Assembly (NCBI RefSeq): GCF_022846255.1
Contig: NZ_AP025682.1
Source of the DNA: Escherichia coli
Lineage (GTDB): Bacteria; Pseudomonadota; Gammaproteobacteria; Enterobacterales; Enterobacteriaceae
DNA length: 64,000 nt
Reading direction: 5' to 3' (one strand)
In this document: one piece after another, positions 22,194 through 44,566 of the stretch
How positions within the stretch are numbered: position 1 is the stretch's first letter
Layout of the letters: each line of letters starts with the position of its first letter
The notes under the pieces: generated by a model
Databases searched by the model: none
The model's input: only the letters and a program-made list of their open reading frames with translations
Told to the model about the DNA's origin: nothing
Program-made: the position numbers and the translations under genes

Positions 22194-22333
22194 CCCATAA
22201 ATGGATAGCTTCGATGATATACCGCCGCGGAAGATGATCGGGGAGTTTATTCATGGAGAATGTCCTTATACGTTCTCAGAACAGGCAGCAAAAAAACAAA
22301 TGAGATCAAGGTAATATATCTTCACTTGCAGGC

Positions 22334-23263: not shown

Positions 23264-23373
23264 GGTTGATAATACCGCGCCCCTATAATCTTGCCATCTC
23301 GTGCATTGAGATGTTAAAAGCTACAAATGTTCTCCCTATTTTTCAATGTAGACATTTATAGCAATATCAAAAT

Positions 23374-24372: not shown

Positions 24373-24498
24373 GTTTATCTTCCTTTTTTAACTGATTTTA
24401 CAGGGACTTTAACACAGTAAAAATTTTATTTCCTGAGCTGTAATCGATTAAGCTGATGCATTCAATGGGAATGATATCACCTAAAAAGCACATTATGA

Positions 24499-25554
24499 CT
24501 ATATAAATAAACCTAAAGAAGCCACACCTTCTTGGGGTAGACGCTGGTGGATCGCCAGAAGAGTCTTCATTTCTCGTAAAACAAACTTTGGCATCCAGCC
24601 ACACTGTAACTCGAAATCAAACCGTTCGTTGTTGGCGTTCCCTTCCGCTGTCATCAGGCCATTTAAGATCAGTTTATTATAAAGCCATTCATCTAAATGC
24701 AAGCTGATACCGTAATCATTAAGCAACTTACAACGCAACTGATGAGCGATTTTTAAGCCCGCAACATCCAGATCGCCAAAATAAAGTAGTTGTTCTACCT
24801 GTTCGACCTCAAGGAGTTGTGACACGCACTCCGCCTGACCGGAAACTTTGTTACCTGCGCCATAAATGACCAGTGACCAGCGAGTCTGTGCTCGATTAAG
24901 TTGGCATAGCCGATAATACACATCGGAGTTTTCAACAATGATAGCCGGAAGATCATGGCAACGAGATGACTCATACGGTAAAGGCGGCGCACGTCGAAAC
25001 GCGCCCATATCAGCCAAAGTCAGAGTGACATGCTTCCAGCCATCAGGTGGCAAGGAGTCCAGAGCTTTTTCGTCACCAAATATAAGCAGAGACCGCTCAC
25101 GATGTCCAAGCAAGCCCGGGAATAGCGACTTGTCGCCCCCGGTTTGGCGAAAAAGATATGTATTCAGCTGTTGTAAGCGTGCCTTGATTGGCTGGGTAAG
25201 TTGTCCTGTAATACGTCGGGCCAACCAGGGATGCCAGGCTATTTCTGATGTTGTCTTCGTAGGAACGATGGCACCTTCGTAAACAAAAGTACTTGGCAGG
25301 CTCATACCCCGCCAGTAACGCTGCCAACTCGCTTTGTGCTTAGGTTGAGCCCGCCAGTCCCTTTCAAGCAGTTGCGTAACAGCCTGACTCAGCAAATCAG
25401 GCACCTCCTGGCTCAAGGCCTCTTGATTGTGTGCGCGTAATACCTCATCCAGCACCGCATTAGCTTTCACTGTACGCACGGCCTTACCAGCGGCAAGACG
25501 ATGTTTATTGGCTGTCGACTCCAGTCGGGATAGCCAGATCATTACGCTACTCAT
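24499..25554 (-). CDS. jetD: JetD-like Toprim-domain protein (Wadjet)
   Basis: C-terminal Toprim-like acidic motifs (AIIVENSDVYY; LYFGDLDVAGLKIA); last gene of a four-gene minus-strand operon following an SMC-like ATPase. Confidence 0.65.
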   Translation of the reverse strand: MSSVMIWLSRLESTANKHRLAAGKAVRTVKANAVLDEVLRAHNQEALSQEVPDLLSQAVTQLLERDWRAQPKHKASWQRYWRGMSLPSTFVYEGAIVPTKTTSEIAWHPWLARRITGQLTQPIKARLQQLNTYLFRQTGGDKSLFPGLLGHRERSLLIFGDEKALDSLPPDGWKHVTLTLADMGAFRRAPPLPYESSRCHDLPAIIVENSDVYYRLCQLNRAQTRWSLVIYGAGNKVSGQAECVSQLLEVEQVEQLLYFGDLDVAGLKIAHQLRCKLLNDYGISLHLDEWLYNKLILNGLMTAEGNANNERFDFELQCGWMPKFVLREMKTLLAIHQRLPQEGVASLGLFI

Positions 25555-25566
25555 CTCATATCAACC

Positions 25567-28500
25567 TTAAATGACTGGATCGAACTGTGGCTTAGCAGCC
25601 AGAGAAGCCGCCCACAGGGCATGGCGTTCTTTATCAACGGTTACCAAATCGCGCCGCCTCAGTTTTTGAACTTTATTCAGGAAGAGATGGTTATCAAACA
25701 TTGATTGGGCGTTTTCATCCGAAATACCAGTCAGGTAGATGAGCTGGATTTTATAGGCTTTGGCCATTTGGGTTTGAATGCGCATTAGATCATTGGCATT
25801 CGATTTACCCAGCGGGTTATCGGCTAACAAGAATCCTGCACTTGAAATACCCGTATCGTACTCTCGTACTTTACCAACCGTCACAAACAGTAAAAAGGCA
25901 GATGTAAGGCGCTGTCCACCCGAACCTTCAAGTCGGGTGACAGGAGTCCATTGTGGACGGCTGGCATTCGTCTTCAGCAAACGCACCTCCAGTTCCCCTT
26001 CGCCAAATACCGACTGAACCAAATCAGCTGTCAAGGCGTCCCGATTGGGCGCTCGGGGTATCTGTCCCCTGGCTATCCACTGCTGCAAGCGGCTGCTGGC
26101 AAAACCCCTGATATCAGCGGCAACATCATTCAACCGGTCGGTCATTTTAATAATGGGCCGACCAGGCAGTACGGGGCAATCCTCAGGAATTTTGACCGAC
26201 ATCGCGCGCCTGAGAAGCTTAATCGCCCCTTCCAGATGAGCAGTCAGATGGGTGACAGTCAGATCAATCGAACGTTGGAATTGCTCGAGGCTGTCCTGCA
26301 CAGCTTCGAATACCTGCGAGATCCCTGTACCGACCCTCTCCAAATCGCCCAGCACTTCATGATAAGTTGCGATTGAGTCCAACGGCCGTAAGTATTCCTG
26401 ACTGGCTCGGGCGTCTGGATCCTTGGCCAACTCTTCTTCGATGCGTTTGCGGAATTTTCCCCAGACCGTAGAGACGCGCATATTTTGCTGTTTTAGCGTT
26501 TCATTTAAACCGGCATACACTTGGCATTGTGCAGCCAGATCGTCAGCATATTCTGTGATGCTCAGGATCCTACCAGGTAGACCTGCGGCAGAGCTCGGCG
26601 TAATGGGCTGGATCATCGCTTGAGCTGTTTTGGCGTTCTGTAGCCGCTCTTTCACATTTTCAATCTTTCTCAACAGCAGTGTCTTTTGTTCCAGTAGGAA
26701 CTTGATCTGGTGTTCAATCGCATAAAGGTTATTGACGATTTCAGCCAGAGACGTTTGGATTGCCTCTATCTCAATGGGCTTCTCTTCCCAGACAAAATCC
26801 TCGTCAAGTGCTTTACTAGCCTCCTCACAGCTTTGGGAAAATTTTTGCAGAGTTACCTGAGAGCTAATTAGATTTTGCGTGAATTGCTTTTGCTGTTCTT
26901 TGAGGCGTACGATGCTGTTATTAATTACCGTTAGCTCATTGATGGCCGCAGCTTTTACCTCATCCGGATATGTATTGTAGGTGGGTTGAGCGGTCAAACG
27001 ATCAGAGGCGTAACGTTGTGCCTGTTCAGCATCTTTCAGTTGTTGCTTGAGAACGGTCACTTGATCACCGTTGGCTGCTTCGAGCAATTTTTTGTGCGCC
27101 TGAGCAGCCATCTCATGGGCATATTCAGGGCTTCGTCCTTCCATACCTTCAGTCGCCGTAATCTCTGAATAGAACGGTTCGTTACACAGATTACTCCAGC
27201 TACCTATCTGGATAATTAAAAGGGTTTTCTCGGAGCGTTTGTTCTTCTCGAGCTCGCTCAGCCGTTCCAGCCTCTCTCTCTGGGTGTAAAGAGTGTTCTT
27301 GCTTCGCTGAATCTGTGCAGCTAACTGCTCCAGTTTCATTATCGCCGTTTCACGCTTCGCCCATTCTTTTTCTACAAAAAGACTCACTTTATCATGTGCT
27401 TTTTCTGCCTGAATTTTCTGCTGTTGGGCGTTGTTTAAACGCACCTGGACATCTCTCTTCTCGTCACGCAGTGTTTGCTCATCATGCTCAGCTTGCTTAA
27501 GTGCTGCATCAGCATTTTCCAGTATTAATAGAGCCAGCTCCCGTTGGTCAAGCAGTCCCGCCCAATGCTTACCATACTGTTCGTAATGCCGACTCCAGTC
27601 ATTCCTGAAAGATTCCAGTACTTTAAGGGCGCTCTCCGCAGCCTTCACACTGACTTCCTGCGACGCTACGGTATTCTCCAGGTCTTGCAGCCGGGTTTCG
27701 TAAGCGGCCTGGCTATATCCGTGCTTATCGGGGTTTGAGAGGACAACCTGTACTAATTCAGACGTTTCTCGGCGGAGATCTTGTGCTTCATCCAGCAAGT
27801 AAATAGCAATAGGTGCCTTCTTCCAGGGTAGGATCTCACTAATTTTATGGACCTGTTCAAACGTTACATTGTCGAGTGCGACCAGGCTCAGGTAGCGGCC
27901 AGGGTTCTGATCGATCACCGCTGCAATCTTTTGTGCATCATCGTTGTGAGCAGAGGCCAAATAGTGTGGAAATGTCCATAGCTTATCCCGTGCAATGCCC
28001 GCAGCATAAAACGCTTCAAGTGCCTCATTGACCTGCTTAGCAACCAGTTCATGTCCCGTCACCCTCAACTCGTCCAGTTCGTGCCGGGCTTGCAGTAAAC
28101 GCTCTTTCATTCCATTCAGCGTTTGAGCGTTCGCATTCAATACTTTGTCGAGCTGCAATCCACACAGCTCGCTGTGCCAACTCGTGTCTTCAATATCCAG
28201 ATCATGTCGCGTTGACGATGGCAGTTTTTGATAGGTTTTTGCTAAAAGTAAGGCACTATCCACAGCTGACTGGTGTTTTTGTTTAGCCAGAATGAGTTTT
28301 TGCTGGGCCTCACTTTTCTCAATTGATGCCTCCCGCACAACATTCAGCTGTGCTTCCAGCGCCTGCTCTTTCTGATGAAGAATTGTATTAGCCAGTTCTT
28401 CACTCTGCTTTGCATCGCGTAAGGTTAATTCCAGTCGGTATTGGGCTGCTACTGGTGTTTCATCCTTCTGGATCAACCCAGCTTCACATAATTCATTCCG

Positions 28501-30003
28501 TTGCGATTCGCCCTGAAATTTGTCTCTTTTATATCCGTCACGCTCCGTTTCCAGACCACCCAACGTCTTTTGTAGTTTATCGTATGACTGTCTGAGGACA
28601 TGGCTTTCCCTGTCCATCTGCCCTAATTCTTCCTCAAGCGTAGCCTCCTGCTGGCGATGTCTGTCGATTGCCCACTCTAATGTGCCCAAGGCTTCGCCAG
28701 CAGTACGCTCGAAAATCACCTGTAGCGGCCTTTCCGTTTCACTTTGGAATACCTTCAGATCTTCATCTGCCTGGCGGTACTCATTCAGGGCCTTAGCATA
28801 GGCTTTGTAGTCTATAGCAGCGTGAGTAATCTCAATCTGGTGCTGATTGGTATCGGCTTCGTCTTGAAGCGCATCGACTATCGCTTTTTGTTTGTCGAAC
28901 TGATGCTGCACGAGATCATATTCAAGCAGTGCTCTGCGCTTACCTAACTGCTCACGCAGAGACATCGCCTGGCCAATATGTGTTTGCAAACTATCCATGT
29001 TATCTTCAAGCTGCGTCTGTTCAACCTGAGCATCCCCGACAAAGGCTGCGAGATCGCGCATTGCTTCTCGGAAGCCATCATCCAGCAGTTGCTGCTGTGC
29101 CTGGATGCTTTCCAGCTGTTTAGCCGGATCAAGAAACGCCAGCCAGTTAGCCAGCACATCCTTCAGGAAGGACTCGTTACGACGAATCCCCTCTAACTCT
29201 CCCTGACGCTCAACTTCATGCGCTACCAGTTCCCGCAGCCGCTCAGCCGCATCTTTAGACATGGTGCAGGCGAAGAACGCGCCAAGGAAATCATGTTCAG
29301 TTTTGTATTCGATAAAACGGGTCAGGCCACCTTCTTCGGAGTTGAAGGTCACCATTGTTTTGATAAGATCAACGTTAATTTGTTGTTCCAGTAAAAATGC
29401 GCGCCACTCGTTCTGTCTGGTGGTTTTACGCCAATGCATACCGCCTTCACTACCGGCCTTGAGATTAAGCCAGCTATCAAAACTGCGCAGGCTATTGGCA
29501 TAGGGGCGCAGCTCAGAATTGCGTTCCGCGCGGGAATAAGAAGGGACTTCATCAAACGGCGCGCCCATCAGGGAGTCGGGCGCATCACAAATAAACAGTG
29601 TCCGGTCAACATCATCTCCATTACGCTGATGAGCATGTCCTAGTAATAACGTTTGTCCTGATTCATTGACCATCTCAACCAAAACAACAGAGAGTTCTTT
29701 ATAGAAGTAATTGCGGTAGTGGTATTCACTCTGGCGATGATTTGCCAGATATTGGGTGAAGTCACTAACGGACGGCTCAAAAATCGATAACAGCAGCGCG
29801 ATGTAGGTCGACTTACCACCCCCATTCACAAGCTGCTGATAAGTACTGGTCACCACCTTCGCATTCCTGACGGGCGAGCGCAGACCTTCAACAACAGGGC
29901 TACTGACCGCTTGAGACAGGCCAATATAGTCCAGTGTGAGGTCCTTGTAGAAAGCTTCTTCATGGCCTGCACCATCCATATAAACCCGTTTAATCAGCCA
30001 CAT
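25567..30003 (-). CDS. jetC: JetC-like SMC/MukB-family ATPase (Wadjet)
   Basis: 1478 aa; N-terminal P-loop (VNGGGKSTY), very long coiled-coil middle, C-terminal signature/Walker B region (LLADNPLGKSNANDL...IQLIYLTGISDE). Confidence 0.7.
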   Translation of the reverse strand: MWLIKRVYMDGAGHEEAFYKDLTLDYIGLSQAVSSPVVEGLRSPVRNAKVVTSTYQQLVNGGGKSTYIALLLSIFEPSVSDFTQYLANHRQSEYHYRNYFYKELSVVLVEMVNESGQTLLLGHAHQRNGDDVDRTLFICDAPDSLMGAPFDEVPSYSRAERNSELRPYANSLRSFDSWLNLKAGSEGGMHWRKTTRQNEWRAFLLEQQINVDLIKTMVTFNSEEGGLTRFIEYKTEHDFLGAFFACTMSKDAAERLRELVAHEVERQGELEGIRRNESFLKDVLANWLAFLDPAKQLESIQAQQQLLDDGFREAMRDLAAFVGDAQVEQTQLEDNMDSLQTHIGQAMSLREQLGKRRALLEYDLVQHQFDKQKAIVDALQDEADTNQHQIEITHAAIDYKAYAKALNEYRQADEDLKVFQSETERPLQVIFERTAGEALGTLEWAIDRHRQQEATLEEELGQMDRESHVLRQSYDKLQKTLGGLETERDGYKRDKFQGESQRNELCEAGLIQKDETPVAAQYRLELTLRDAKQSEELANTILHQKEQALEAQLNVVREASIEKSEAQQKLILAKQKHQSAVDSALLLAKTYQKLPSSTRHDLDIEDTSWHSELCGLQLDKVLNANAQTLNGMKERLLQARHELDELRVTGHELVAKQVNEALEAFYAAGIARDKLWTFPHYLASAHNDDAQKIAAVIDQNPGRYLSLVALDNVTFEQVHKISEILPWKKAPIAIYLLDEAQDLRRETSELVQVVLSNPDKHGYSQAAYETRLQDLENTVASQEVSVKAAESALKVLESFRNDWSRHYEQYGKHWAGLLDQRELALLILENADAALKQAEHDEQTLRDEKRDVQVRLNNAQQQKIQAEKAHDKVSLFVEKEWAKRETAIMKLEQLAAQIQRSKNTLYTQRERLERLSELEKNKRSEKTLLIIQIGSWSNLCNEPFYSEITATEGMEGRSPEYAHEMAAQAHKKLLEAANGDQVTVLKQQLKDAEQAQRYASDRLTAQPTYNTYPDEVKAAAINELTVINNSIVRLKEQQKQFTQNLISSQVTLQKFSQSCEEASKALDEDFVWEEKPIEIEAIQTSLAEIVNNLYAIEHQIKFLLEQKTLLLRKIENVKERLQNAKTAQAMIQPITPSSAAGLPGRILSITEYADDLAAQCQVYAGLNETLKQQNMRVSTVWGKFRKRIEEELAKDPDARASQEYLRPLDSIATYHEVLGDLERVGTGISQVFEAVQDSLEQFQRSIDLTVTHLTAHLEGAIKLLRRAMSVKIPEDCPVLPGRPIIKMTDRLNDVAADIRGFASSRLQQWIARGQIPRAPNRDALTADLVQSVFGEGELEVRLLKTNASRPQWTPVTRLEGSGGQRLTSAFLLFVTVGKVREYDTGISSAGFLLADNPLGKSNANDLMRIQTQMAKAYKIQLIYLTGISDENAQSMFDNHLFLNKVQKLRRRDLVTVDKERHALWAASLAAKPQFDPVI

Positions 30004-30005
30004 AC

Positions 30006-30902
30006 TTAAATCTCCGTCAAGCGTTGCGTTTCTGTGGTTCCAGTTGTAACTGGACGTTCATTGAGCGAAGGAAACTCCAGGGTATCTGCTAATGCTGCAA
30101 GATCGCTTTCAGCTAAATCGGACGACCGTTCTTCTACGGCTGGACTGATGCTCATGACAAAGCGCACCGTCTCTTCGATGCCAGTATGGCGCAGATAATG
30201 TTTGAGTTTTTGGGTCGGATACCAGTCGGACTCTCCCGACAAACTGCTGTCTTCGGCCAGAAAGCCTTCCTCCTGCAGCAGTTGTATCCAGCGCGTTGCC
30301 ATTTCTGTTTGCGAGCGAATACTTGAGACACGCCCTACCTTTTCGTCGTGAATACGGGGAATACGTTCTTCCTGCACAAACCTGGCCGCCATAAGTAGGC
30401 CATCTACGGTATCGTCACCCTCGGCCTTGCGCTGGGCAATCACCTGGTCGGCAACATTATTGAGCCTGGCTACCACCGAGGCTGCATTAATGGCGTTACT
30501 CTGACCGAACTCGACACGAACGGTGTCTGGAGTTGGAAACAAATCAGCCAGCAACGCAATCAGAGTTAAGCCTGCAAACAGGCGCTGTTCTTTCCGTTCC
30601 TTACCCTGTTGCTCAGCCATTGTTTCAGGTAGCAAGCGTTTGTTCAGCCAACCCAAAGATGGGGAAAACGGACCTCGGCCATCTGCAGCCAGTAATACCC
30701 CGTAGGTCTCATGAATCCCGAGATACCGCAATTTCATACCTGTCGCGACGCCACGGATAATCTCTGTGAACAGGGCATCACCTTGCAGATCAAGAGCACG
30801 TTGAATCAGCTCATCCCCCATTTTATATCCCAGTGAATTCATAATTGCCTGCGTGGCAATCTCGGCGTAGCGTTTAGTTTGTTGATGCGCGTTGTCGTAC
30901 AT
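30006..30902 (-). CDS. jetB: JetB-like (MksE-like) subunit (Wadjet)
   Basis: 298-aa ORF translationally coupled between jetA (4-nt overlap) and jetC (3-nt gap); assignment by size and operon position. Confidence 0.55.
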   Translation of the reverse strand: MYDNAHQQTKRYAEIATQAIMNSLGYKMGDELIQRALDLQGDALFTEIIRGVATGMKLRYLGIHETYGVLLAADGRGPFSPSLGWLNKRLLPETMAEQQGKERKEQRLFAGLTLIALLADLFPTPDTVRVEFGQSNAINAASVVARLNNVADQVIAQRKAEGDDTVDGLLMAARFVQEERIPRIHDEKVGRVSSIRSQTEMATRWIQLLQEEGFLAEDSSLSGESDWYPTQKLKHYLRHTGIEETVRFVMSISPAVEERSSDLAESDLAALADTLEFPSLNERPVTTGTTETQRLTEI

Positions 30903-30904
30903 AA

Positions 30905-32371
30905 CTACTCCTCAAAGGGGTATAAGGGAGCAACCGTTAACAGTTTGATATTGTTAGCCCGCCAGAGCGTTGTTTCGATAGCGCCGTCTATCTCCACTTC
31001 TATTGCGGGATCGCTGTTAGCTGCCAGGCTGCCAATATGGAGTAAACAAACCTGTTGCTCTTGTTCGGATAATTCTTCGCCCTCATAGGCGTCAAAAACA
31101 TCTCTAAAGCTCACATGCCCCCAATTCTTCAATCGGTCACTAACCCAATCGCTGCATTTTTTAATGACAGATTCAGGGATACCTCGCAGGTTGGTTTCAA
31201 TAGCTACAGGCTGATCGGTGAGGTCCTGTATCTCATGTGGAAGCGCCTGTTCAAATCTATCGAGATAAAGGTTCAGCAGCGCCTCAAGGTCAAACAGAAT
31301 GTGCCGATCATCATCCTGTCTTCGGGGAGCCAACAGGCGTGCGGTGAGATCATCGATTTCCTTTTCGACAGTGTCGGGGGAATGAGACAGCAAGGGCTTG
31401 AGTGCACCTTTTTCCAGTGTTTCCCGAAAGAGGGTATTATCTCTGGGAATAATGAGTTTCAGACGAGCTCGCTCAAAATCTTTATTCACATCCAGTAAGC
31501 AGTCTTGATAGCGCTGCGTAAAAGCGCAGACCTCAGCAAAAATCTCCTGTGCTCTACGTAGCTTATTTAATTTGTCGGGATTTAATTTCGAAATTCCTTC
31601 AACCAGCATTTCGGTAATGGCCGACATTGAGTTCTGGATATGTTCCAAAACCTCTCGGGTTTTATCAAAGGAATCATTGAGTACGGGACGGATATCGTGT
31701 GCATAAGATGCACTCAAATCACCAGACTGGGCGGCACGCACTTTCATCCGCATTCCAATCAGATATTGCTCCAGTTGCCGCTGTGTTGATTGGATTTGGT
31801 GTACTGCCTTGTCGATCTCTCCGCGACGGATCGTTTTAAGCGTGCGCCAGGCCAGAATCGCAGCGCGTTCTATCGGCGTTTCATCCAAGCGCAGGGTATA
31901 GAACAACATTCCTTCATCAGTCAGCGACCAGAGAATATCATCTGAGCCGGATAGCTGGTCATAGCGTACCAGACGGACTATCTGCTCTTCGGAATGCGTT
32001 CGTTGCGAGAAATCATAATAACGGAGGCGGAAAGGATCTTTGATCGCCACAAAAATCTTGCTGGCCACTTGTGCGTAGTCGGGTTCTTCTTGTCCCGGAT
32101 AGGCTTCATTGAGGTGCCCAACCAGACATAACTCCGCTTCCTTACGCGTCATTCCAGGCCGGCGCTCGCGGTCAGCATAATAAAGCATGGCGTCAAAGAG
32201 ATACATGATTGCCGCCAGCGCATCAAGCTCAACACCATCGAACGGATTTCGCTGAAGGGCGCTATATATTGAATCCAGCGTCCGCACGACCAGCAAGGCG
32301 TGAGACTGAATAGACAGCTCACGACGTGCCATTGATTCATTACGAGCCTGCTCCAAAAACCCTAGCGACAT
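30905..32371 (-). CDS. jetA: JetA-like (MksF/kleisin-like) subunit (Wadjet)
   Basis: 488-aa ORF, first gene of the operon; assignment by size and position upstream of JetB/JetC/JetD. Confidence 0.55.
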   Translation of the reverse strand: MSLGFLEQARNESMARRELSIQSHALLVVRTLDSIYSALQRNPFDGVELDALAAIMYLFDAMLYYADRERRPGMTRKEAELCLVGHLNEAYPGQEEPDYAQVASKIFVAIKDPFRLRYYDFSQRTHSEEQIVRLVRYDQLSGSDDILWSLTDEGMLFYTLRLDETPIERAAILAWRTLKTIRRGEIDKAVHQIQSTQRQLEQYLIGMRMKVRAAQSGDLSASYAHDIRPVLNDSFDKTREVLEHIQNSMSAITEMLVEGISKLNPDKLNKLRRAQEIFAEVCAFTQRYQDCLLDVNKDFERARLKLIIPRDNTLFRETLEKGALKPLLSHSPDTVEKEIDDLTARLLAPRRQDDDRHILFDLEALLNLYLDRFEQALPHEIQDLTDQPVAIETNLRGIPESVIKKCSDWVSDRLKNWGHVSFRDVFDAYEGEELSEQEQQVCLLHIGSLAANSDPAIEVEIDGAIETTLWRANNIKLLTVAPLYPFEE

Positions 32372-32417
32372 AACATTCTCCCTCTGAGACGGAAGCCACT
32401 ATAGTACTCCCCTGCCA

Positions 32418-32440
32418 ATTAAGCAAAGAAACTTTGCTTA
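32418..32440. promoter_or_regulatory. Perfect palindrome in the jetA/regulator divergent promoter region (candidate operator)
   Basis: ttaagcaaag-aaa-ctttgcttaa (10-bp arms, 3-bp spacer) followed by a T9 run; lies 47 bp upstream of jetA and ~105 bp upstream of the divergent regulator gene. Confidence 0.4.
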
Positions 32441-32546
32441 ATTTTTTTTTATAGCAATGTTATTTGTTTTGATGTCATTCGCCTTCTATACTCAGTCGGT
32501 ATATCAAACCGCAATTGATTAACCTGCAAATAAGAATAAAACTGAT

Positions 32547-33440
32547 ATGTACTACTCAAAGTTTCTTGAGAAACACAAATCCCCCCTCAGCCACGCACAA
32601 TGGTTGCGCTTGCGCTATATTGAGCGCCAGCTACTGTGGGAACGAAAAGTCACTTCGCGCATGATTGCTGAAGAGTTTGGCGTCTCGGCGCAACAAGCTC
32701 GTACTGATGTAAGAACCTATATGGAGGTCGCTCCAGGCAATGCTATTGAGAAGGGGGCCGGCCGAAAAGGGTATTTCCCCAGTACGACGTTTACGCCTGT
32801 TTTGCTGGGAGACAACGATCTGGTCTGGCGTGCGACGGTAGAATTTCAACCGCCGCAAGCGGCCCACGCGCAGGAAATCCCGCTCATCCATCGCGCCGTG
32901 CATAGCCGCACGCTGGCAATTTTTTTGTCAGCAATCGAACAGAAAGGACAAGTAAAAGTGACTTATGCGTCAATGGAAAACCCGGAAGGCATATCTCGTA
33001 CACTAAGCCCTACGGTAATTATCACCGTTAACGGGCGTCAGCATGTGCGAGCCTATGACTGGGGAAGTTCGGCGTTTAAGGACTTTGTTTTGGCGCGATT
33101 TCTGGACTCGCCGGAACTGATTGTTCCTGCACCCGCCCCGCCACGCAAAGATACCGCGTGGGAGGTCATAATCCCCGTGCGTTTTATCGCAAATCCAACA
33201 CTAAACAAAGCGCAACAAGAGGTAATTAAGCGGGACTATTTACTTGAACCCTCTGAATTCAACATTCGTGCACCAATGATTTTTTATTTATGCCCTGAAA
33301 ACAATCTGCCTAAAACAGATGATGAATATGCACAAGCTACTGACGCCAGCAGCCACGGCCCCTTTATCTACCCTGTTCTAGCTGTGCACGCCCAAACAGG
33401 GGAGCCTATTCATAAGTACCGCCATGCAGGTGAGAGATAG
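32547..33440 (+). CDS. HTH transcriptional regulator with WYL-like domain (BrxR/CapW-like)
   Basis: HTH segment (SRMIAEEFGVSAQQARTDVRTYM) followed by WYL-like core (VRAYDWGSSAFKDFVLARF); divergent from jetA. Confidence 0.45.
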   Translation: MYYSKFLEKHKSPLSHAQWLRLRYIERQLLWERKVTSRMIAEEFGVSAQQARTDVRTYMEVAPGNAIEKGAGRKGYFPSTTFTPVLLGDNDLVWRATVEFQPPQAAHAQEIPLIHRAVHSRTLAIFLSAIEQKGQVKVTYASMENPEGISRTLSPTVIITVNGRQHVRAYDWGSSAFKDFVLARFLDSPELIVPAPAPPRKDTAWEVIIPVRFIANPTLNKAQQEVIKRDYLLEPSEFNIRAPMIFYLCPENNLPKTDDEYAQATDASSHGPFIYPVLAVHAQTGEPIHKYRHAGER

Positions 33441-33559
33441 ACATTCTGTTTACTAATAATTTATAGCCATTTTCTGCTCCTGCATCAGAGATATGATGCA
33501 GGAATATTAAATACCAGCCACCTATAAATTATGATTTATTAATTTCTGATTCAGTTAAA

Positions 33560-33948: not shown

Positions 33949-34818
33949 TCAATCAAGAGGGATGGTCCACATTGACGTATCAAAATCGATCTCTGACCAG
34001 CGAGCAAAACGTAGCTCACTGGAGCGAATAAAGATAAGCAGAGTGAGTTCCGTTGCCCAGCGGGTTAGCGGCCTGCCGGTATAGCCGTCTATTTTCTCAA
34101 GTAACTCAGGGATGCGCTTTAACTCCAGCGCCGGACGATGCTGTCGATTACTGGAAGCAACCGCCCCCGCCATCTCTTGTGCCGGGTTATAATCAATTAA
34201 TCCACTTTGCACTGCATAACGCATGATGGCCGTGGTGCGCTGTTGAAGGCGGGAAGCCACTTCAAAACGTCCAGATTTCTCCACGGCTTTAATGGGAATT
34301 AACAGATCGCGGGTGCCCAGTTCAGCAATATTGCGAGCAACAATTGTTGGGAAGATATTGTCCTCCAGGCTCTTTTTTCCACGATTAGCATGATCTTCCG
34401 ACCATTTTTGGTTGGTTACGAGCCACTCTCTGGCAACCTTCTCGAAAGTAATAATCTCTTTCGCCTGCTCTTCTTTCACAGCACGTTTATGCTCACGAGG
34501 ATCGATACCAGCAGCGACCAGCTTTCTGGCCTCTTCCCTTTTCTTCCGCGCATCCGCCAGCGAAACATCCGGGTAAACGCCGAACGCCATCAAATGTTGT
34601 TTACCACCAAAACGGAAACGAAATCGCCAATACTTTGAACCGCCAGGTTTTACAAGTAAAGACATGCCGTCGCCGTCAACAAGTGAATACTCTTTCTCCT
34701 CAGGTTTTGCAGGACGAACTTTAGTATACGTTAGGGCTATAGTGGTCTTCCTTCCATTGGTATCTCGTGAGTATACAAGCAATATCGAATCGGCAAATAT
34801 ACTTATAAGTATACTCAC
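33949..34818 (-). pseudogene. P4-type tyrosine integrase, C-terminally truncated (intB-like remnant)
   Basis: Residues align with the N-terminal two thirds of the intact integrase at 51593-52840 (GSKYWRFRFRFGGKQ..., RLQQRTTAIMRYAVQSGLIDYNPAQ, LTLLIFIRSSELRFARWSEIDF) but end at ...WTIPLD before the catalytic region. Confidence 0.75.
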
Positions 34819-34927: not shown

Positions 34928-34940
34928 ATTTACATACTTT

Positions 34941-34963
34941 TGGTGCGAAGGCCGGACTCGAAC
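34941..34963 (-). repeat. 23-bp direct repeat of the leuX 3-prime end (att site / island junction)
   Basis: tggtgcgaaggccggactcgaac matches the 3-prime end of the tRNA at 53030-53054 except for one deleted base. Confidence 0.8.
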
Positions 34964-35685
34964 ATATTAATTATCCCGTTGTATTTAAGGCTATTTTATC
35001 AAAATCATTATTGAAGTACCATCATTAATACCATCATAGGTATTGTTCTCCTTTGGCAACAGTTCTTTGATATCGAAATACTTTAACGAACTTTTTATGA
35101 CATCATACTTTGAAGAAAAAATCACATACTGATTTTCATCCAGTACATCTTGCAAGACAAGGTATAAAACAGGGACTACGATTAAAAATAGCAAAGTCAT
35201 TCACTAAATGAATTCAAAATCAGTGATGTTCTTATCTGCAAGAATATAATATATTTAAAAGATTATAAGCAATATATAAATAATAATATAGCTTTAAAAA
35301 AACACACATGAATTAGAAGTTAAATACATTAATTAAAGAAACAAATAAGTAAGAATTTTGTTTTTAAATAACTCATGCAAACGCATCGTTTATTTATATT
35401 AAAGGAAAATGATGAAATCCAATCTAAATTTAAATAGCTACATTACAAACGAATAGAAAAAGAAGCATTTTCCATGTTAAACTACTATCTTGGTGAAGAC
35501 AGGGGGTATAGCCTTCTGCGGTAGCCTACGCTCTTCGAATGCAAAGCAAGAAAATAACCTTTATAATCAAATTGTTATGCAATGCGCTTGTAGAGCAAAG
35601 GTATCTTAAACGAATAGGTTTAACAGTTAAAGCCTCTTTACATAGGCTGAACAAGGGCAGTACTTGAAAATGATAAAATTGGGGT

Positions 35686-37371
35686 ATGTTTAAAATTATG
35701 AATGCCCATAGTTTAGAGATGAGAAAAGAGTTAGGAGCATATTATACTCCAAGTGCTCTTAGTCAAGTGATGTCAGATTGGGCAATTAGAAGACCAACTG
35801 ATAAAATACTTGAGCCAAGTTTTGGAGGCTGTGGCTTTTTAGAAAGCTGTGAAAAGAGCCTCATGGAGATAGGCTGCATAAACCCAATGGAAAATTTATT
35901 TGGGGTTGATGTAGACCAAAAAGCCTTTGATACTCTCAAAAAAAAATATGGGCATTTATTAATAAAAAAACATTTCATTTTAAGTGATTTCATTAACGTA
36001 TTTCCAAAAGATTTTGGCATTGAAGATTTTGAGGTTATCATTGGGAACCCTCCTTATATCTCTATGCATAATATGAGTTATGAACAAAGGAAGTCCTGTG
36101 AAAAAGTTTTTGCTGACTCACCTTTTAAAACAAAAACATTAGGACGCAATGCAAGTCTTTGGGGGTTTTTCTTACTCCATGCATTAAGCTTCATTCGAGA
36201 AAATGGACGAATAGCGTGGGTATTACCGAGTAGTTTTTTAAATGCCTATTATGCGAAAGAGCTTATAAGAATTTACAAAAATCATTTTAACCATCTAAAA
36301 ATAATAAAGATAAATGAAAGACTTTTCAAAAATGAAGGTGCCGATGAAATGTCAGTACTTTTTTTATGCGATGAGTTTCACAGGACACCTATCAATAATG
36401 GATACGTTTCAATTGGATTTGCTGACACATTAAATGAACTAACCAGCATAATGACTGGAACTAAAGAAAACAAATTAAATAGCTCTGAAAATTACAAATA
36501 TAATATATTAGATATTGACACATTAAATGTGATATCGTCTATAACAGAACATAAGTACAGTTTAAAAATACAGGATATTGCTGATATAAAGATTGGGATG
36601 GTAACCGGCATGAACAACTTCTTTATATTGGATCAAAATCAAATTTTAAAACATAATTTAGACAATAAACATTTTAGACCAGTTATTTCACGATTTTCAC
36701 ATTTGAAGGGAATTCACCACACATTAAAAAGACATACGAAGTTAATTGCAGACAATAAAAAAGGATTGCTATTACACGTCAGTCCAGATGATTTATATGA
36801 AAAACATAGTCCGTTGAGAAAATATTTATCACAAGTTGATAGAAAAGAACGAGTCAAAAACCGCACATTCAAAAAACGAAAAAAGTGGTTTCAACCAGAT
36901 GATGGTATTTACCCAGACGCATTTTTTTCATATATGGTTCATGAGTTTCCCAGAATGATATTAAATAAAGGGAAAGTTAACTGCACTAACTCAATACATC
37001 GTATCTTTTTCAAAGATATAGCATCTAATAAATTAAAAAAAGCATGTTGCATATCTCTTTTATCAACATTTTCACAACTTTCTGCCGAACTTGAAGGTCG
37101 GTCATATGGCTCAGGTGTGCTAAAAATAGAGCCTACCGCAGGAAAGAACATATCATTCTTAATTAAAGATGATTTAATACACGAGTTAAGCAACTTAAGT
37201 AAAGAAATAGATCAATTGCTTTTAAATAATGAAACAAGCAATGCCACTGCTTTAGTTGATAAGTTTTTTGTTGATAAGGGACTAATTAGCTTAGATGAAT
37301 TGAAAAGTCTTAAAAAAGGGTTATTCAGATTAAGAAAAGATCGATATAAAGGGGTCAAAAATTATGAGTGA
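35686..37371 (+). CDS. N6-adenine DNA methyltransferase (Eco57I-like gamma-class) with C-terminal extension
   Basis: Motifs GAYYTP, ILEPSFGGCGFL (motif I-like) and IIGNPPYIS (motif IV, approx 36044-36060); 561 aa; first gene of a tightly overlapping four-gene operon. Confidence 0.8.
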   Translation: MFKIMNAHSLEMRKELGAYYTPSALSQVMSDWAIRRPTDKILEPSFGGCGFLESCEKSLMEIGCINPMENLFGVDVDQKAFDTLKKKYGHLLIKKHFILSDFINVFPKDFGIEDFEVIIGNPPYISMHNMSYEQRKSCEKVFADSPFKTKTLGRNASLWGFFLLHALSFIRENGRIAWVLPSSFLNAYYAKELIRIYKNHFNHLKIIKINERLFKNEGADEMSVLFLCDEFHRTPINNGYVSIGFADTLNELTSIMTGTKENKLNSSENYKYNILDIDTLNVISSITEHKYSLKIQDIADIKIGMVTGMNNFFILDQNQILKHNLDNKHFRPVISRFSHLKGIHHTLKRHTKLIADNKKGLLLHVSPDDLYEKHSPLRKYLSQVDRKERVKNRTFKKRKKWFQPDDGIYPDAFFSYMVHEFPRMILNKGKVNCTNSIHRIFFKDIASNKLKKACCISLLSTFSQLSAELEGRSYGSGVLKIEPTAGKNISFLIKDDLIHELSNLSKEIDQLLLNNETSNATALVDKFFVDKGLISLDELKSLKKGLFRLRKDRYKGVKNYE

Positions 37372-39673
37372 AGATATTCTTTTTTTGAAGGATAAGATGA
37401 AAGCCCTCCTGGATAATGAGGCTCTCGATTATGATAAAGTATTAGAAACAGCAGTAAAAATCACCGAAAAAGACAACAACAATATTAGATTTTCTGTAGA
37501 TGCGAATTTAGTTAGAAGATTAGGTGAGCAGTTAGTCGCTAAAAAAACTACTGCTGTCAGTGAATTGGTGAAAAATGCTTATGACGCAGATTCGACATTA
37601 GTAAATGTATATTTCGAATTGAACGAAGCAAATCCTCGAATAGTCATATTCGATGACGGCACAGGTATGTCAAAGGAAGATATTATCAATGGATTCATGC
37701 GAATAAGCACAAGTGAAAAAGAAGATAACTCTGTTTCAGAACGATATCAGAGACTAAGAGCAGGTAGAAAAGGTATTGGGCGTTTTTCTACACAGCGATT
37801 AGGAAATTATTTAAAAATAATTACCAAGCAAGAAAATGAAGAGTTAGGATATTTAATAGAAATTAACTGGCAGCAGTTTTCAAAAAAGAAAAATATATCC
37901 TTCATTGCTAACACTATCTCAAAAATCGATGTGGATTTCATTCATGGAACAAAAATAATAATAGAAGATCTGAATGATAAAGATTGGTCTGATGGGAACA
38001 TAAAAACGGCTTATAAATATATTAAGAGCATTATAAATATTGCCCCAAGCGAGACAGATCCAGGTTTCCAAGTAAAGTTCTATTATAAAAATGCCAATGG
38101 CTATGAATTAGTTGCAGATGAGAAAACTGAAATTTTTTCTGATAGTGATGCTCATATTACAGCAACACTTGAAAATGGAAATGCTGTAGTGAGAGTTAGC
38201 AGTGAAACCCTTGGCATAAAAAATGAAAGCATAGATGTATGGTATGATGAAAAAAATAACATACGAAAATTCTCACATATAAACTCTCCAGTAAAGCTTG
38301 ATGCATACTATTTCTCATTAGCAACAGTTAACTCCAGAAAACAAGCGGCATATTTACGTGAAAATGGCGGAATAAAAATCTATCGAAATGGATTCAAGGT
38401 TTCTCCTTATGGAGAGCAGTATGATGACTGGACGGCTCTTGATGACTCGGTTCGAAGGAGAAAGATATTACCCCCTCATGGTAATCAAAACTTCTTTGGA
38501 CACGTCAAAGTTGAAGACCTAAATGGAATAGACTTTGAAGAAACGTCCTCAAGGGAAGGTCTGATTCATACCGATGCCTTTCAAGAACTTCGCCTCTTTG
38601 TATATAAAGCACTGACGGCTGCGGTAATAAGAATTAGTGAAGCCAGAAATATAAAAATAAATCCAAATGACCGTAGCTATGTTAAAGAAACTAAACCAAC
38701 AATATCAGTCAAAGATAAATTAAATATTGTATCTGAAACGATAAGCTCGGTTAGTAAATTGGTAGATGCAGCAACATCTGTTGATGACGTTTCAAGTGAT
38801 GGTGTCATTAATAACATTGAAGATAAAAGTATAAGAAACAAAATTATTGAAGATCTCCATGAAGCCGCAGATGAGCTAAAACAAGCGAGTGTGATATCTC
38901 AATCTTTAATCGATGAAATTGAGCTTCTTAGAGTGCTTGGCGCTATGGGCCTTGCTATTGGTGAGTTTACACACGAAATAAATTTATCAATAACAAGTTT
39001 GAGTATTAACGTTCAAAACCTTAAACAGTCTAAATTATTAGAGGAAGATAGAGACTCTGCTCTAAATAGCCTTGAAAATAATATTGCAACATTAAAATCA
39101 TTTACTAAATTTTTTGACAGTACTATACGTGAGAATGTAAACAGAAATAAGAAAGTTATTGAGATAAGAGACTCTATTGAGCCATTTTATGAATCGATGA
39201 AACCAATAATAGAACGCAAAGGAATTCAGTTTGCAATACATTATGAAGGTTATGAACTTTTTACGAAGCCGATTCATGTTTCAGAGCTATATTCTGTATT
39301 TATAAATCTCTTTACGAATGCATATAAAGCAATACTTCGTTCTGGAACAAATCCACGAAAAATGTCTTTAACTGCGAAAAAAGATAGTGAAGATATAATT
39401 ATCCGATTCGAAGATAGCGGTGATGGAATTGAACCTGCAAATAGAGAAAGAGTTTTTGAGCCTTTCTATACAACAAGTACACCATCAGGACCTTTTGAAA
39501 GTGATGATTTATCATTAAAAGGAATGGGATTGGGGTTATCAATCGTACGTGATCTCGTTGAATCCATGTCTGCAGAAATATCTATAGTTGATGCATCCGA
39601 TGGTTTTACAACGTGCTTTGAGTTGAGAATTCCAAAAGCTGATGATAAGGAAATACCAGATGACATCTATTAA
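37364..39673 (+). CDS. Dual Bergerat-fold ATPase: N-terminal MutL/HSP90/MORC-like GHKL module plus C-terminal histidine-kinase core (HisKA-like H-box + HATPase_c)
   Basis: N-terminal motifs ELVKNAYDAD (approx 37562-37591), DDGTGMS, GRKGIGRF; C-terminal H-box GEFTHEINLSITSL (approx 38961-39000), N-box LFTNAYKAIL, G1 EDSGDGIE, F-box FEPFYTT, G2 GMGLGLSIV; no obvious TM segment; start overlaps MTase stop by 8 nt. Confidence 0.7.
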   Translation: MSEDILFLKDKMKALLDNEALDYDKVLETAVKITEKDNNNIRFSVDANLVRRLGEQLVAKKTTAVSELVKNAYDADSTLVNVYFELNEANPRIVIFDDGTGMSKEDIINGFMRISTSEKEDNSVSERYQRLRAGRKGIGRFSTQRLGNYLKIITKQENEELGYLIEINWQQFSKKKNISFIANTISKIDVDFIHGTKIIIEDLNDKDWSDGNIKTAYKYIKSIINIAPSETDPGFQVKFYYKNANGYELVADEKTEIFSDSDAHITATLENGNAVVRVSSETLGIKNESIDVWYDEKNNIRKFSHINSPVKLDAYYFSLATVNSRKQAAYLRENGGIKIYRNGFKVSPYGEQYDDWTALDDSVRRRKILPPHGNQNFFGHVKVEDLNGIDFEETSSREGLIHTDAFQELRLFVYKALTAAVIRISEARNIKINPNDRSYVKETKPTISVKDKLNIVSETISSVSKLVDAATSVDDVSSDGVINNIEDKSIRNKIIEDLHEAADELKQASVISQSLIDEIELLRVLGAMGLAIGEFTHEINLSITSLSINVQNLKQSKLLEEDRDSALNSLENNIATLKSFTKFFDSTIRENVNRNKKVIEIRDSIEPFYESMKPIIERKGIQFAIHYEGYELFTKPIHVSELYSVFINLFTNAYKAILRSGTNPRKMSLTAKKDSEDIIIRFEDSGDGIEPANRERVFEPFYTTSTPSGPFESDDLSLKGMGLGLSIVRDLVESMSAEISIVDASDGFTTCFELRIPKADDKEIPDDIY

Positions 39674-40763
39674 CCTACTTTATATCGATGATGATCAGCC
39701 TCAGCAAGTAAAGGGTTTAATTGAAGCAATAATCAGTAAAGCGAGTTTTGATTTAAATATAACTCATAAACCGCCGACGAAAATGAGTGAAATAGCCATA
39801 GAGTTGAGACAAGGTTATGATGGTATCATCATAGATCAAAAACTTGACAGCTTTGTTGAGGGAGTAGAACCAGTTGATTACTTTGGTGCCGCGTTAGCAC
39901 AAAATTTGCGAACACTCATGGCGGGTAAGTCAGATAATATATCTTATAAGCCAATAATTTTACTCTCTCTCGAAAGCTTATTAATTGAATATTATAATCC
40001 CGATTCAAGCTCGCATGATCTATTTGATTTAGTTTTGAGTAAAAGCATATTAGAACAACCAGAATTGTTAGAAAAAAAAGTTCACTTAATAAAATCTATT
40101 GTGAATGCTTACAAACGTGCACATTCGGAAGACTCGTTATATCAATTGCTTTCTCTGAGCAGTAATTATTCATTGCTTGATAAAAGATTTGAAATATATA
40201 TTTCTCAGTATGATAAAGATATACATAAGCTCGTCACATCCATACACTCCACACTTCTGAGAAGTAGTGGCATGTTAGTTTCTGAGATAACTTTGGCAAC
40301 CAGACTGGGTATTAATATTGAAGAATCGCCAGACTGGCACCAAGTAATTGGGCACCTTGAGGAATATAAATACAATGGCATATTCTCTGATTATTATAAA
40401 AGATGGTGGTGGGCAGATGTAGAGTTGTGGATAAATAAAAAGCTTAACTGCCCAATAATTAAAGGATTAACCTCAGAAAAAAGAGTGGAGATCATCAAAG
40501 AAAAACTTGGCTTAGAACGATTGATGCCAATTCATAGCGTACATCCAGGCCAAAGCACCAAGTTTTGGGTTAATTGTATCATCAGTAAAGAACCTCTTGA
40601 TACAATAGATGCTCTTCGTGCATCATCTATGGAATTAAAACCTTGGGAAGATGATAAATACCTTTCAATTAAAACAGTGTTAGAGAGACGGGCCGAAAAA
40701 TATAAAGTACATCCAGAAGATAGAACAAAATTGGATCGAATTCGGGCGAGGTTTAAATTATAA
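39642..40763 (+). CDS. Receiver (REC)-like domain protein with unassigned ~250-aa C-terminal domain
   Basis: CheY-like pattern: LLYIDDD (beta1, acidic pocket), GIIIDQKL (candidate phospho-acceptor Asp), KPIILLSLES (beta4 Ser); divergent REC, so call is tentative; overlaps kinase gene stop. Confidence 0.5.
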   Translation: MIRKYQMTSINLLYIDDDQPQQVKGLIEAIISKASFDLNITHKPPTKMSEIAIELRQGYDGIIIDQKLDSFVEGVEPVDYFGAALAQNLRTLMAGKSDNISYKPIILLSLESLLIEYYNPDSSSHDLFDLVLSKSILEQPELLEKKVHLIKSIVNAYKRAHSEDSLYQLLSLSSNYSLLDKRFEIYISQYDKDIHKLVTSIHSTLLRSSGMLVSEITLATRLGINIEESPDWHQVIGHLEEYKYNGIFSDYYKRWWWADVELWINKKLNCPIIKGLTSEKRVEIIKEKLGLERLMPIHSVHPGQSTKFWVNCIISKEPLDTIDALRASSMELKPWEDDKYLSIKTVLERRAEKYKVHPEDRTKLDRIRARFKL

Positions 40764-41506
40764 TGAACAATAATACAACTTTGTTAGACGATATGTGTAG
40801 GCTCAGGGACTTTTTATATGATAGCCGCATATGCCCAGATATTAATCCTCTCAACCGTTTAATCAGTAAACTTAATGCAAATCTCCACTCCGAAACAGGG
40901 GAGGACTTTGAATACTCTTTAGACGATTTAGTATTTTATCTTAGCGAAAAATCTGGAACAATTTGTCCGACCCAAATTACACCCAAAGAAAACCCTATTG
41001 AAATACATTTGGAACTTATATTAAAAAGTGAAGGCCCTTATGAATTTTCGAAGATTAAAGAACTTTCAGGGCAATTACGACTTAAAGCTGAGTGGATCAA
41101 TGACACAACAGAAAAAATTGAGATAAAAACATCACATAGTGCTTGGCATTTTGATTATCATGTTCCTCAAATGGGGGATGGCGTAAATTCATTTACTCAT
41201 CCTCAATTCCATTTACAAAATGGAGGAAACAGGCTGACTGATAATTTAAATGACTATGGAGAGTTAATGATTCTTGATGCTCCAAGACTACCTTTACCTC
41301 CTATGGATGTGATATTAGCCATTGACTTTATTATTTCAAATTTCTTTGGTTCTATTTGGCAACAAGCATTATGTGATTCAGAATACATTGATGTAGTTAA
41401 AAGAGCACAAAAAGCATGGTGGAAACCTTATTATGAAGGTATAAGTCAACACTGGTCTGGCAATGGCTCAGGAATATCCAATATCCTAATTCCAAACCTT
41501 CTGTAG
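40763..41506 (+). CDS. Hypothetical protein (247 aa), fourth gene of the operon; possible effector
   Basis: ATG overlaps preceding stop (ATAATG); His-rich segment HFDYHVPQMGDGVNSFTHPQFH; no confident motif. Confidence 0.6.
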   Translation: MNNNTTLLDDMCRLRDFLYDSRICPDINPLNRLISKLNANLHSETGEDFEYSLDDLVFYLSEKSGTICPTQITPKENPIEIHLELILKSEGPYEFSKIKELSGQLRLKAEWINDTTEKIEIKTSHSAWHFDYHVPQMGDGVNSFTHPQFHLQNGGNRLTDNLNDYGELMILDAPRLPLPPMDVILAIDFIISNFFGSIWQQALCDSEYIDVVKRAQKAWWKPYYEGISQHWSGNGSGISNILIPNLL

Positions 41507-41771
41507 TGTATCAAAATCTGTTAACCATCTCCAATTACGAATAGCAATATTTATATAAAACTAATTTTTTATTTTAAACAACTTCAGCAAGGGCTAACTC
41601 TCAGCATCTCCTTCGGTGATACTTTGAGTTGCTCCTTGTTTTTTCGCCCTTTGGTTGAAAAAATTAAAAGCAAAACCAACCCTATACATTGACTTTTTCA
41701 GCATCTATCATATAAATAAAATAAGCATAATGGACATGCTTATTTTACTTTACTATATGAAAGGAGTTCAT

Positions 41772-43372: not shown

Positions 43373-43580
43373 TTTCTCCACAGATAAACGATCGTTATAA
43401 TCGATCGATTTATTTATATTGATAGTCAATAACAATCAATAGGTAAATAATCGATCGGTACAAGCAATTTGCTATGTCCTTAGAAGTGTTCAAAATGTAC
43501 TTTCATGCATAAATCGGATAATAGGTTGATTTTACTAGCCTATTTTTCTATCCACGTATCGAACATGCAGGGACTGAAGT

Positions 43581-44171: not shown

Positions 44172-44182
44172 GGAAAACAAGA

Positions 44183-44473: not shown

Positions 44474-44566
44474 ACTTAATTATATTTGACAATAGAAAAA
44501 TAGTACGTCATAGATAGTAAATTGATAACAACCAGTGGGTTGAGCCACTGGCTGTTATCCCAATGG

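Follow-up and report, generated by a model that had tools for sequence, protein, structure and literature searches.

A 64,000-nucleotide stretch of Escherichia coli DNA (contig NZ_AP025682.1), to which we refer as the window, carries at positions 32547 to 33440 a gene for a transcriptional regulator that belongs to the BrxR/CapW family and that forms, in the lineage examined here, a fixed part of a mobile five-gene module of type III Wadjet. The regulator probably represses the divergently oriented Wadjet operon through a conserved palindrome located between both genes. We consider it likely, albeit with some reserve, that the protein is a homodimeric BrxR/CapW-type repressor which constitutes the regulatory gene of the Wadjet module, acts via this palindrome and is released by a ligand. 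The initial annotation had raised the possibility of signal-dependent repression of this locus, and such repression is supported comparatively by the linkage of regulator and Wadjet, by a covarying palindrome that lies over the predicted −35 element of jetA and by the invariance of the residues aligning to known contacts with single-stranded DNA (ssDNA).

The regulator is a member of the BrxR/CapW family

The open reading frame (ORF) of the regulator runs from an ATG to a stop codon, and its start codon is kept among orthologues. RefSeq/PGAP labels the identical E. coli protein WP_032172247.1 as "BrxR family helix-turn-helix transcriptional regulator"; in older annotations it is a "WYL domain-containing protein". 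The gene and the domains of its product are located as follows:

32547–33440, plus strand: BrxR/CapW-family regulator gene, 297 amino acids (aa), with winged helix-turn-helix (wHTH), WYL and WCX domains
32592–32780, plus strand: wHTH domain, about aa 16–78, delimited by the helices and strands of the AlphaFold2 (AF2) model and aligning to the wHTH domain of the Acinetobacter BrxR, BrxR(Acin)
32910–33107, plus strand: WYL domain, aa 122–187, Pfam PF13280 with 29.1 bits at a gathering cut-off of 21.8
33114–33437, plus strand: WCX/BrxR_CTD domain, about aa 190–297, delimited by PF26107 on homologues and by Foldseek alignments, pLDDT 72–93

When all sequences of the Protein Data Bank (PDB) were searched with phmmer, exactly five matched the regulator, each of them a BrxR or a CapW, and these matches span aa 10–262. 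The best of them is the Acinetobacter BrxR 7T8K (E 1.5e-28, aa 10–239), followed by the CapW proteins of P. aeruginosa (7TB5, E 2.5e-23), R. leguminosarum (9C5G, E 3e-17) and S. maltophilia (7TB6, E 5e-17) and by the BrxR of E. fergusonii (7QFZ, E 1.7e-13). Neither PafBC nor DriD was among the PDB sequence matches even at E ≤ 10. The AF2 model of the regulator, which was built from a 24-sequence alignment, has a pLDDT of 79 and a pTM of 0.72, with a disordered linker at aa 92–115 (pLDDT <50). Its top 15 Foldseek matches in the PDB are all BrxR/CapW chains (E 2e-18 to 8e-14) over 257–305 columns, so that the alignments include the C-terminal domain, and the activators PafBC and DriD were recovered with E-values of 1e-6 to 1e-4 and TM-scores of 0.23–0.31 to the model. 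Likewise, the precomputed architecture PF26109 (WHD_BrxR), PF13280 (WYL) and PF26107 (BrxR_CTD) is found in 38 of 38 database homologues and in the cluster representative that is 97% identical to the regulator.

The N-terminal domain of the model consists of three helices (aa 16–32, 37–44 and 48–61) and two strands (aa 66–69 and 75–78) that form the beta wing; the motif of the recognition helix reads S47-A48-Q49-Q50, and the N-terminus aligns to the wHTH domains of BrxR and CapW starting at aa 10–19. Generic Pfam models for helix-turn-helix (HTH) domains stayed below threshold on the regulator (HTH_11, E 0.14; HTH_10, E 0.11 for aa 21–57), and an NCBIfam profile search returned no match, although PGAP names the protein as BrxR family. 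Hence, the HTH domain is identified by the alignments to PDB proteins, by the fold search and by the PF26109 matches of the homologues. The WYL domain was additionally recognized by two PADLOC WYL models with 56 and 30 bits, the former being the CRISPR-associated model PDLC01457 (aa 25–224).

Taken together, sequence, profile and fold evidence agree that the regulator belongs to the BrxR/CapW family of wHTH-WYL-WCX proteins. This bears out the initial annotation, which had described an HTH plus a WYL-like core of the BrxR/CapW class: the WYL domain scores above the Pfam cut-off and both the sequence and the fold matches in the PDB point to this class. The Pfam scan for WYL and HTH_11 that had been proposed as a check was positive for WYL only, and the HTH_11 model would fail if taken alone.

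The ssDNA-contact residues of the family are retained, with an altered RWHVR motif

CapW binds ssDNA via S144, R164, R168 and R184 of its WYL domain, which leads to its release from double-stranded DNA, and it was proposed that all repressors of the family, which share a "highly conserved RWHVR motif", respond likewise (Blankenchip et al. 2024). S142, R164, R168 and R184 of the regulator align to these four contacts in the R. leguminosarum protein. They are invariant among the orthologues of the regulator and present in 140–146 of 146 family representatives. Where the family has RWHVR, the regulator reads RQHVR (aa 164–168). Position 165 of the motif is a tryptophan in 113 of the 146 full-length representatives (77%), and the 33 representatives without it mostly carry hydrophobic residues; the tryptophan is hence not strictly family-defining. 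Gln165 is limited to the Wadjet-linked cluster among the 146 representatives, and the nearest relatives all have a residue other than tryptophan at this position. In CapW, the tryptophan packs on the linker helix that relays the signal and couples ligand binding to this helix (Blankenchip et al. 2024). Trp172 is specific to the clade of the regulator cluster, and one may speculate that it compensates for the tryptophan lost from RQHVR.

Regulator and Wadjet genes form a five-gene module

The gene cluster divergent from the regulator consists of the following genes:

30905–32371, minus strand: jetA of type III Wadjet, 488 aa, full-length match to PADLOC JetA3 PDLC00564 with 1130 bits
30006–30902, minus strand: gene in the jetB position, 298 aa, assigned from its location between jetA and jetC
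25567–30003, minus strand: jetC, SMC-like ATPase, 1478 aa, PADLOC JetC3 PDLC00587 with 3371 bits
24499–25554, minus strand: jetD, Toprim nuclease subunit, 351 aa, PADLOC JetD3 PDLC00593 with 806 bits

These genes represent a complete type III Wadjet operon, jetA3-B-C3-D3, with jetA as the first gene and a putative jetB, and 175 bp separate the start codons of jetA and the regulator. The adjacency to Wadjet noted initially is hence substantiated by profile matches to JetA3, JetC3 and JetD3. The product of jetD (Toprim/DUF2220) is named "JetD domain-containing protein" in RefSeq and its orthologues carry PF09983 JetD_C. The gene in the jetB position had no match in Pfam, PADLOC and NCBIfam profile searches; its position, size and sequence are kept in all orthologous modules (72–93% identity).

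In a set of 5,426 complete E. coli genomes, 65 contain the regulator and 64–66 contain jetA3, and both are always found side by side. Orthologous loci from other organisms were gathered by an exact peptide-pattern scan of contigs (4 loci) and by exact-protein look-ups. Anchored on the WYL protein, this yielded close relatives with 76–90% identity in Zobellella, Carnimonas, Oceanimonas, Endozoicomonas, Photorhabdus, Aeromonas, Brenneria, Serratia, Halomonas and a TARA metagenome contig, and at all ten loci the regulator gene is divergent from jetA3-B-C-D with a gap of about 140–185 bp. The outer flanks of this unit differ at every locus and comprise insertion sequence (IS) elements, integrases, BREX, housekeeping and toxin-antitoxin genes. 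The divergence of the regulator (76–90%) parallels that of JetA (74–92%) and also tracks that of JetD.

To counter ascertainment bias, a reciprocal search anchored on JetA3 was carried out, which reached homologues down to 74% identity. It recovered an intact module with the regulator in Pectobacterium and only two jetA3 loci without it, both of which are decayed remnants. The locus of Cobetia marina (L019, 1062–9476) lacks the regulator as well as the palindrome and has frameshifts in jetB and jetC, while the other locus (L020, 4001–5473) consists of a lone 5′-truncated jetA between a type VI secretion system gene and an IS element. These two cases, and there are two only, are compatible with decay of the operon after loss of the regulator. 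Overall, a divergent regulator was present in 12 of the 12 intact modules examined, i.e. the window and 11 loci from other gammaproteobacterial genera or metagenomes. Since every intact copy contains the regulator, the unit is a five-gene module, and the regulator is the fixed fifth gene of this mobile type III Wadjet module in the examined lineage.

Two of the orthologous loci showed further particularities. In the TARA metagenome contig, jetC is called as two ORFs of 591 and 883 aa (3008–7449), which may be due to a frameshift or pseudogene, or else to an error in the assembly. In Brenneria goodwinii (L012, 8356–20894), the regulator, 86% identical to that of the window, lies between the divergent Wadjet operon and a type I BREX operon that is complete (brxA, brxB, brxC, pglX, pglZ) and starts 130 bp downstream of the regulator on the same strand, and the Brenneria regulator may serve two defence systems.

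More distant relatives occur in other contexts. A sister clade with about 39% identity and the motif RLHVR is located among housekeeping genes on marine Oceanospirillaceae-type contigs (10001–10855 on each of L004 and L005), with no recognisable defence system adjoining and at a distance of 625 bp from a divergent gene for an ABC transporter. Such a location suggests targets outside defence, too, for BrxR-like repressors, and the clade supports neither side of the regulatory model for Wadjet. A relative with about 22–31% identity (P0038) represents a classic CapW, whose gene diverges from a CBASS operon.

A covarying palindrome overlaps the predicted jetA promoter

To examine the region between jetA and the regulator, we aligned 11 orthologous intergenic regions. 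Four blocks are conserved, namely ACTATAG (TATAGT on the jetA strand), the core CAAAG-N3-CTTTG, GCAATGTTATTTG and TATACT. The layout of the region is as follows:

32398–32403, minus strand: predicted jetA −10 element TATAGT, 26 nt upstream of the jetA ATG, assigned by conservation
32417–32443, no strand: candidate operator, perfect palindrome AATTAAGCAAAG-AAA-CTTTGCTTAATT of 12 + 3 + 12 bp within the 175-bp intergenic region
32421–32426, minus strand: predicted jetA −35 element TTGCTT, with a 17-nt spacer to TATAGT, inside the left arm of the palindrome
32454–32466, no strand: conserved box GCAATGTTATTTG between the palindrome and the predicted −35 element of the regulator
32464–32469, plus strand: predicted weak −35 element of the regulator, TTGTTT, at 17-nt spacing to TATACT
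32487–32492, plus strand: predicted −10 element of the regulator, TATACT, with 5 of 6 positions invariant in all 11 regions

The palindrome has no second copy in the window that would point to a wider regulon. While its outer arms vary in sequence between the orthologous regions, their symmetry is kept, as illustrated by AATTAAG/CTTAATT in E. coli, CATCAGG/TCTGATG in Carnimonas, ATGCAAAG/CTTTGCAT in Aeromonas and TATACAAAG/CTTTGTATA in Pectobacterium. Across the 11 regions, 81.7% of the cells are complementary, compared to 29–54% when the partners are slid by 1–3 columns; 6 of the 12 pairs are changed on both sides, and the observed covariation score was matched by none of 500 shuffles. The dyad symmetry is hence maintained by compensatory changes. 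BrxR/CapW repressors have palindromic operators near the promoter of the defence operon that they control, and this palindrome is a candidate for such an operator.

The ACTATA(G) block that would provide the −10 element of jetA is kept in 9 of the 11 regions and carries single changes in the other two, and the −35 element TTGCTT matches the consensus at 3 of 6 positions. With the promoter placed in this way, the palindrome would span approximately −52 to −26 and overlap the −35 element. The third block is kept as GCAATnTTATTT in 10 of the 11 regions and deviates in Carnimonas; its matches across the window are no more than expected by chance. It may serve as an additional binding site or belong to the promoter of the regulator itself.

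Comparison with characterized BrxR and CapW proteins

The closest solved relative of the regulator is the BrxR of Acinetobacter sp. NEB394 (7T8K/7T8L; Luyten et al. 2022, PMC9122589), with which it shares the wHTH-WYL-WCX architecture (Foldseek E 2e-18, 29% identity). This protein has a proven operator, a pseudo-palindrome of about 25 bp at −51 to −27 that overlaps the −35 element (PMC9122589), and the placement predicted for the jetA palindrome essentially matches this geometry. The two systems differ in that the Acinetobacter gene is the co-directional first gene of a type I BREX operon, whereas the regulator studied here is divergent from Wadjet, and in that the Acinetobacter half-sites comprise 10 bp with a 5-bp spacer as opposed to 12 bp with a 3-bp spacer, the sequences being unrelated. 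Moreover, BrxR(Acin) combines the base-contacting SRQQ (S37-R38-Q39-Q40) with RWHVR, while the regulator has SAQQ and RQHVR. In the alignment, R38 corresponds to A48, and SAQQ in place of SRQQ fits a different operator sequence.

CapW proteins (E. coli upec-117, S. maltophilia, P. aeruginosa and R. leguminosarum; 7TB5, 7TB6, 9C5G; PMC9122588, PMC11662680) are similar to the regulator over their full length (E 2.5e-23 to 5e-17). Like the regulator, they are encoded divergently from a defence operon, in their case CBASS, which they repress by binding to a palindrome in the shared promoter region. The CapW palindromes comprise 19–24 bp and lie over the −10 element, whereas the palindrome described here has 27 bp and lies over the predicted −35 element. 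CBASS is also an abortive-infection system, while the regulator adjoins Wadjet. The serine and three arginines with which CapW contacts ssDNA are kept in the regulator, but the relay tryptophan of CapW is a glutamine, and the true CBASS-linked CapW among the relatives (P0038) shares the above-mentioned 22–31% identity with it.

Among the solved relatives, the BrxR encoded on E. fergusonii pEFER (7QFZ; Picton et al. 2022, PMC9122601) is the most distant (Foldseek 1.5e-15, 23–26% identity). In its operator, inverted repeats of 11 bp flank a 5-bp spacer, which adds up to the same 27 bp as in the jetA palindrome. This BrxR controls a BREX/BrxU island, however, with the operator situated downstream of the promoter. 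PafBC and DriD possess similar domain classes and sense ssDNA through their WYL domains; they are activators, however, with weak fold matches to the regulator and absent from the sequence search.

Wadjet has been listed among the systems that co-localise with BrxR homologues (Picton et al. 2022, PMC9122601), and CapW/BrxR proteins were noted to occur sometimes beside Wadjet, an association that was found puzzling (Blankenchip et al. 2024). In the literature searched, we found no experimental test of the regulation of Wadjet by a WYL protein.

Proposed mode of action and alternative explanations

If the regulator acts as its characterized relatives do, the two wHTH domains of the unliganded dimer would bind the 27-bp dyad at 32417–32443, which would lie in a non-transcribed spacer between divergent promoters. 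The bound palindrome would cover the −35 element of jetA, so that RNA polymerase would be excluded and expression of jetABCD kept low. A ligand bound to the WYL domain would rotate the wHTH domains off the DNA and de-repress Wadjet; by analogy to the family, this ligand might be ssDNA that arises from DNA damage or invading DNA.

Several observations weigh against such a repressor. A generic sigma-70 consensus scan found no promoter within the intergenic region, and the promoters are therefore placed solely from conserved hexamers. The predicted −35 element of the regulator follows the palindrome at a distance of about 20 bp, and autoregulation through the palindrome is not obvious. With its predicted promoter placed downstream of this site, the regulator, should it control its own gene at all, may do so via the GCAATGTTATTTG box instead. 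Because the tryptophan that packs on the linker in CapW is a glutamine in the regulator, the allosteric relay may differ or be impaired. The position of the regulator directly upstream of BREX in Brenneria implies that its targets may exceed Wadjet, and it was argued that an effective Wadjet system "should be constitutively expressed" (Blankenchip et al. 2024). Finally, the centre of the palindrome at about −39 of the jetA promoter corresponds to the position of a class II activator and the predicted −35 element is weak, a geometry that allows activation.

It is quite unlikely, in our view, that the regulator is a ligand-dependent activator like PafBC or DriD that, when bound to ssDNA, would recruit RNA polymerase to the weak jetA promoter from the palindrome near −39. 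Besides the promoter geometry and the 3 of 6 consensus matches of TTGCTT, such a function could invoke that wHTH-WYL-WCX activators with the same ssDNA-binding face exist and that the fold search recovers PafBC and DriD; in both sequence and fold, however, the similarity to the repressors is stronger by at least 10 orders of magnitude, the PDB sequence search returned no activator at E ≤ 10, and the candidate operator is placed as it is for the repressor BrxR(Acin). An unlikely explanation, too, is that the regulator controls only itself or other genes of the island such as BREX or restriction genes, with Wadjet being constitutive and the adjacency due to shared carriage on a mobile island. 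Against this stands that the downstream gene of the regulator varies from genome to genome and that it is the divergent jetA and the intergenic elements that are constant. The palindrome overlaps the promoter on the jetA side and not on the regulator side, and the lack of a second operator copy in the window argues in the same direction. What remains in favour of this explanation is that BrxR homologues border mosaic defence islands beside many systems, that the Brenneria regulator is co-directional with and directly upstream of brxA-brxB-brxC-pglX-pglZ and that Wadjet is expected to work best if constitutive.

The palindrome itself could be a transcribed hairpin, i.e. an intrinsic terminator or a leader element, with the regulator binding elsewhere. 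A terminator scan indeed flags it on the plus strand as a 12-bp stem followed by a T run, and its RNA folds at −11.3 kcal/mol (z = −3.4). Nevertheless, we deem this very improbable: there is no upstream gene on the plus strand to terminate, the palindrome is enclosed by the divergent start codons and, within these, by the two conserved −10 boxes, its stem contains only 3 G-C pairs, the T run is not conserved in the orthologues while the dyad is, and there is no Rfam match. A function as terminator was rejected on the basis of this context and of the non-conserved T run. Similarly remote is the idea that the regulator is a decaying or ligand-blind relic, in which the exchange of tryptophan for glutamine uncouples sensing and leaves a constitutive repressor or a non-functional protein. 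The restriction of Gln165 to this cluster, at a position with 77% tryptophan and otherwise mostly hydrophobic residues, and the linker modelled at a pLDDT below 50 would be in line with it. Conversely, RQHVR and the whole protein are kept in intact ORFs across about 10 genera at 76–97% identity, which is indicative of purifying selection, the ligand-contact residues are invariant, and about a quarter of the family representatives lack the tryptophan, which hence appears dispensable.

Beyond the repressor proposed here, a more far-reaching model, which we regard as doubtful, is that this Wadjet lineage is obligately inducible and not constitutive. A dedicated BrxR-like repressor with a relay altered specifically in this clade (RQHVR, Trp172) would sense a signal tied to the substrate or product of Wadjet, for example ssDNA from the resected cleaved plasmid, which would create a feed-forward loop. 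Losing the regulator would then be toxic and the operon would decay, a course at which the Cobetia locus hints.

The Wadjet island and its loss in E. coli O157:H7

The locus resides on the E. coli chromosome in an island adjoining tRNA-Leu(CAA). This island contains other defence genes upstream of Wadjet (13744–24372):

within 13744–24372: gene of the STY4851/ECs_5259 family, upstream of Wadjet
17258–20788: type II Zorya with zorA2, zorB2 and zorE
within 13744–24372: HNH endonuclease
22334–23263: phosphorothioate-dependent SBD-HNH endonuclease
23374–24372: PDC-S11/PDDEXK nuclease

Another island, about 18 kb long and low in GC (32–40%), is located at 34940–53114. It is bordered by a 24-nt near-copy of the 3′ end of tRNA-Leu(CAA) (34940–34963) and by the tRNA gene itself (53030–53114), and it carries its own intact integrase (51593–52840) as well as a pair of type II methyltransferase and restriction enzyme (35686–39673). 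A reference strain lacks this second island. In the Wadjet island, which is the older one, the integrase (33949–34818) is truncated. Downstream of the regulator, 39 nt past its stop codon, there is a hairpin with a 9-bp stem (CCTGCATCA-GAGATA-TGATGCAGG, 33479–33502) followed by AT-rich sequence. This hairpin could be the terminator of the regulator gene, although it is not among the hits of the terminator scan.

Position 23231 of the window is joined directly to 33429 in about 309 E. coli genomes, most of them O157:H7, as seen in comparison with E. coli O157:H7 EDL933 (L017). This junction removes 10,197 bp (23232–33428) with the PDC-S11/PDDEXK gene, jetDCBA and the regulator, and the phosphorothioate-dependent endonuclease of the EDL933 type ends '...EGFV-GER*' by using the last three codons and the stop codon of the regulator gene. 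The junction is a deletion scar, and the lineage formerly had and then lost the Wadjet module. E. coli O157:H7 TR01 is the sole genome with a different junction (5926–6058 of the extracted locus, corresponding to 23186|33383 in the window). Here, a 45-bp block from the 3′ end of the endonuclease gene is swapped in frame for a 45-bp block from the 3′ end of the regulator gene. The total length of this junction equals that of the EDL933 type, so that a clonal lineage has two junctions of equal length, and the two 45-bp blocks are only about 33% identical.

Implications for Wadjet regulation

Wadjet is generally regarded as a constitutive surveillance system. The RefSeq name of the gene, the mechanism of the family and the co-localisation of BrxR with Wadjet were already known, and the finding is in this respect largely expected and otherwise confirmatory. 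What our analysis adds are the fixed five-gene module, a specific candidate layout of operator and promoters and the RQHVR variant. In one widespread gammaproteobacterial lineage of type III Wadjet, the regulator is more than an occasional neighbour and forms a constant part of the mobile module. The candidate operator and promoter layout make it directly testable in E. coli whether transcription of Wadjet is gated and which signal would do so. In this species, de-repression or loss of the regulator could alter the uptake of plasmids in the approximately 1% of strains that carry the module.

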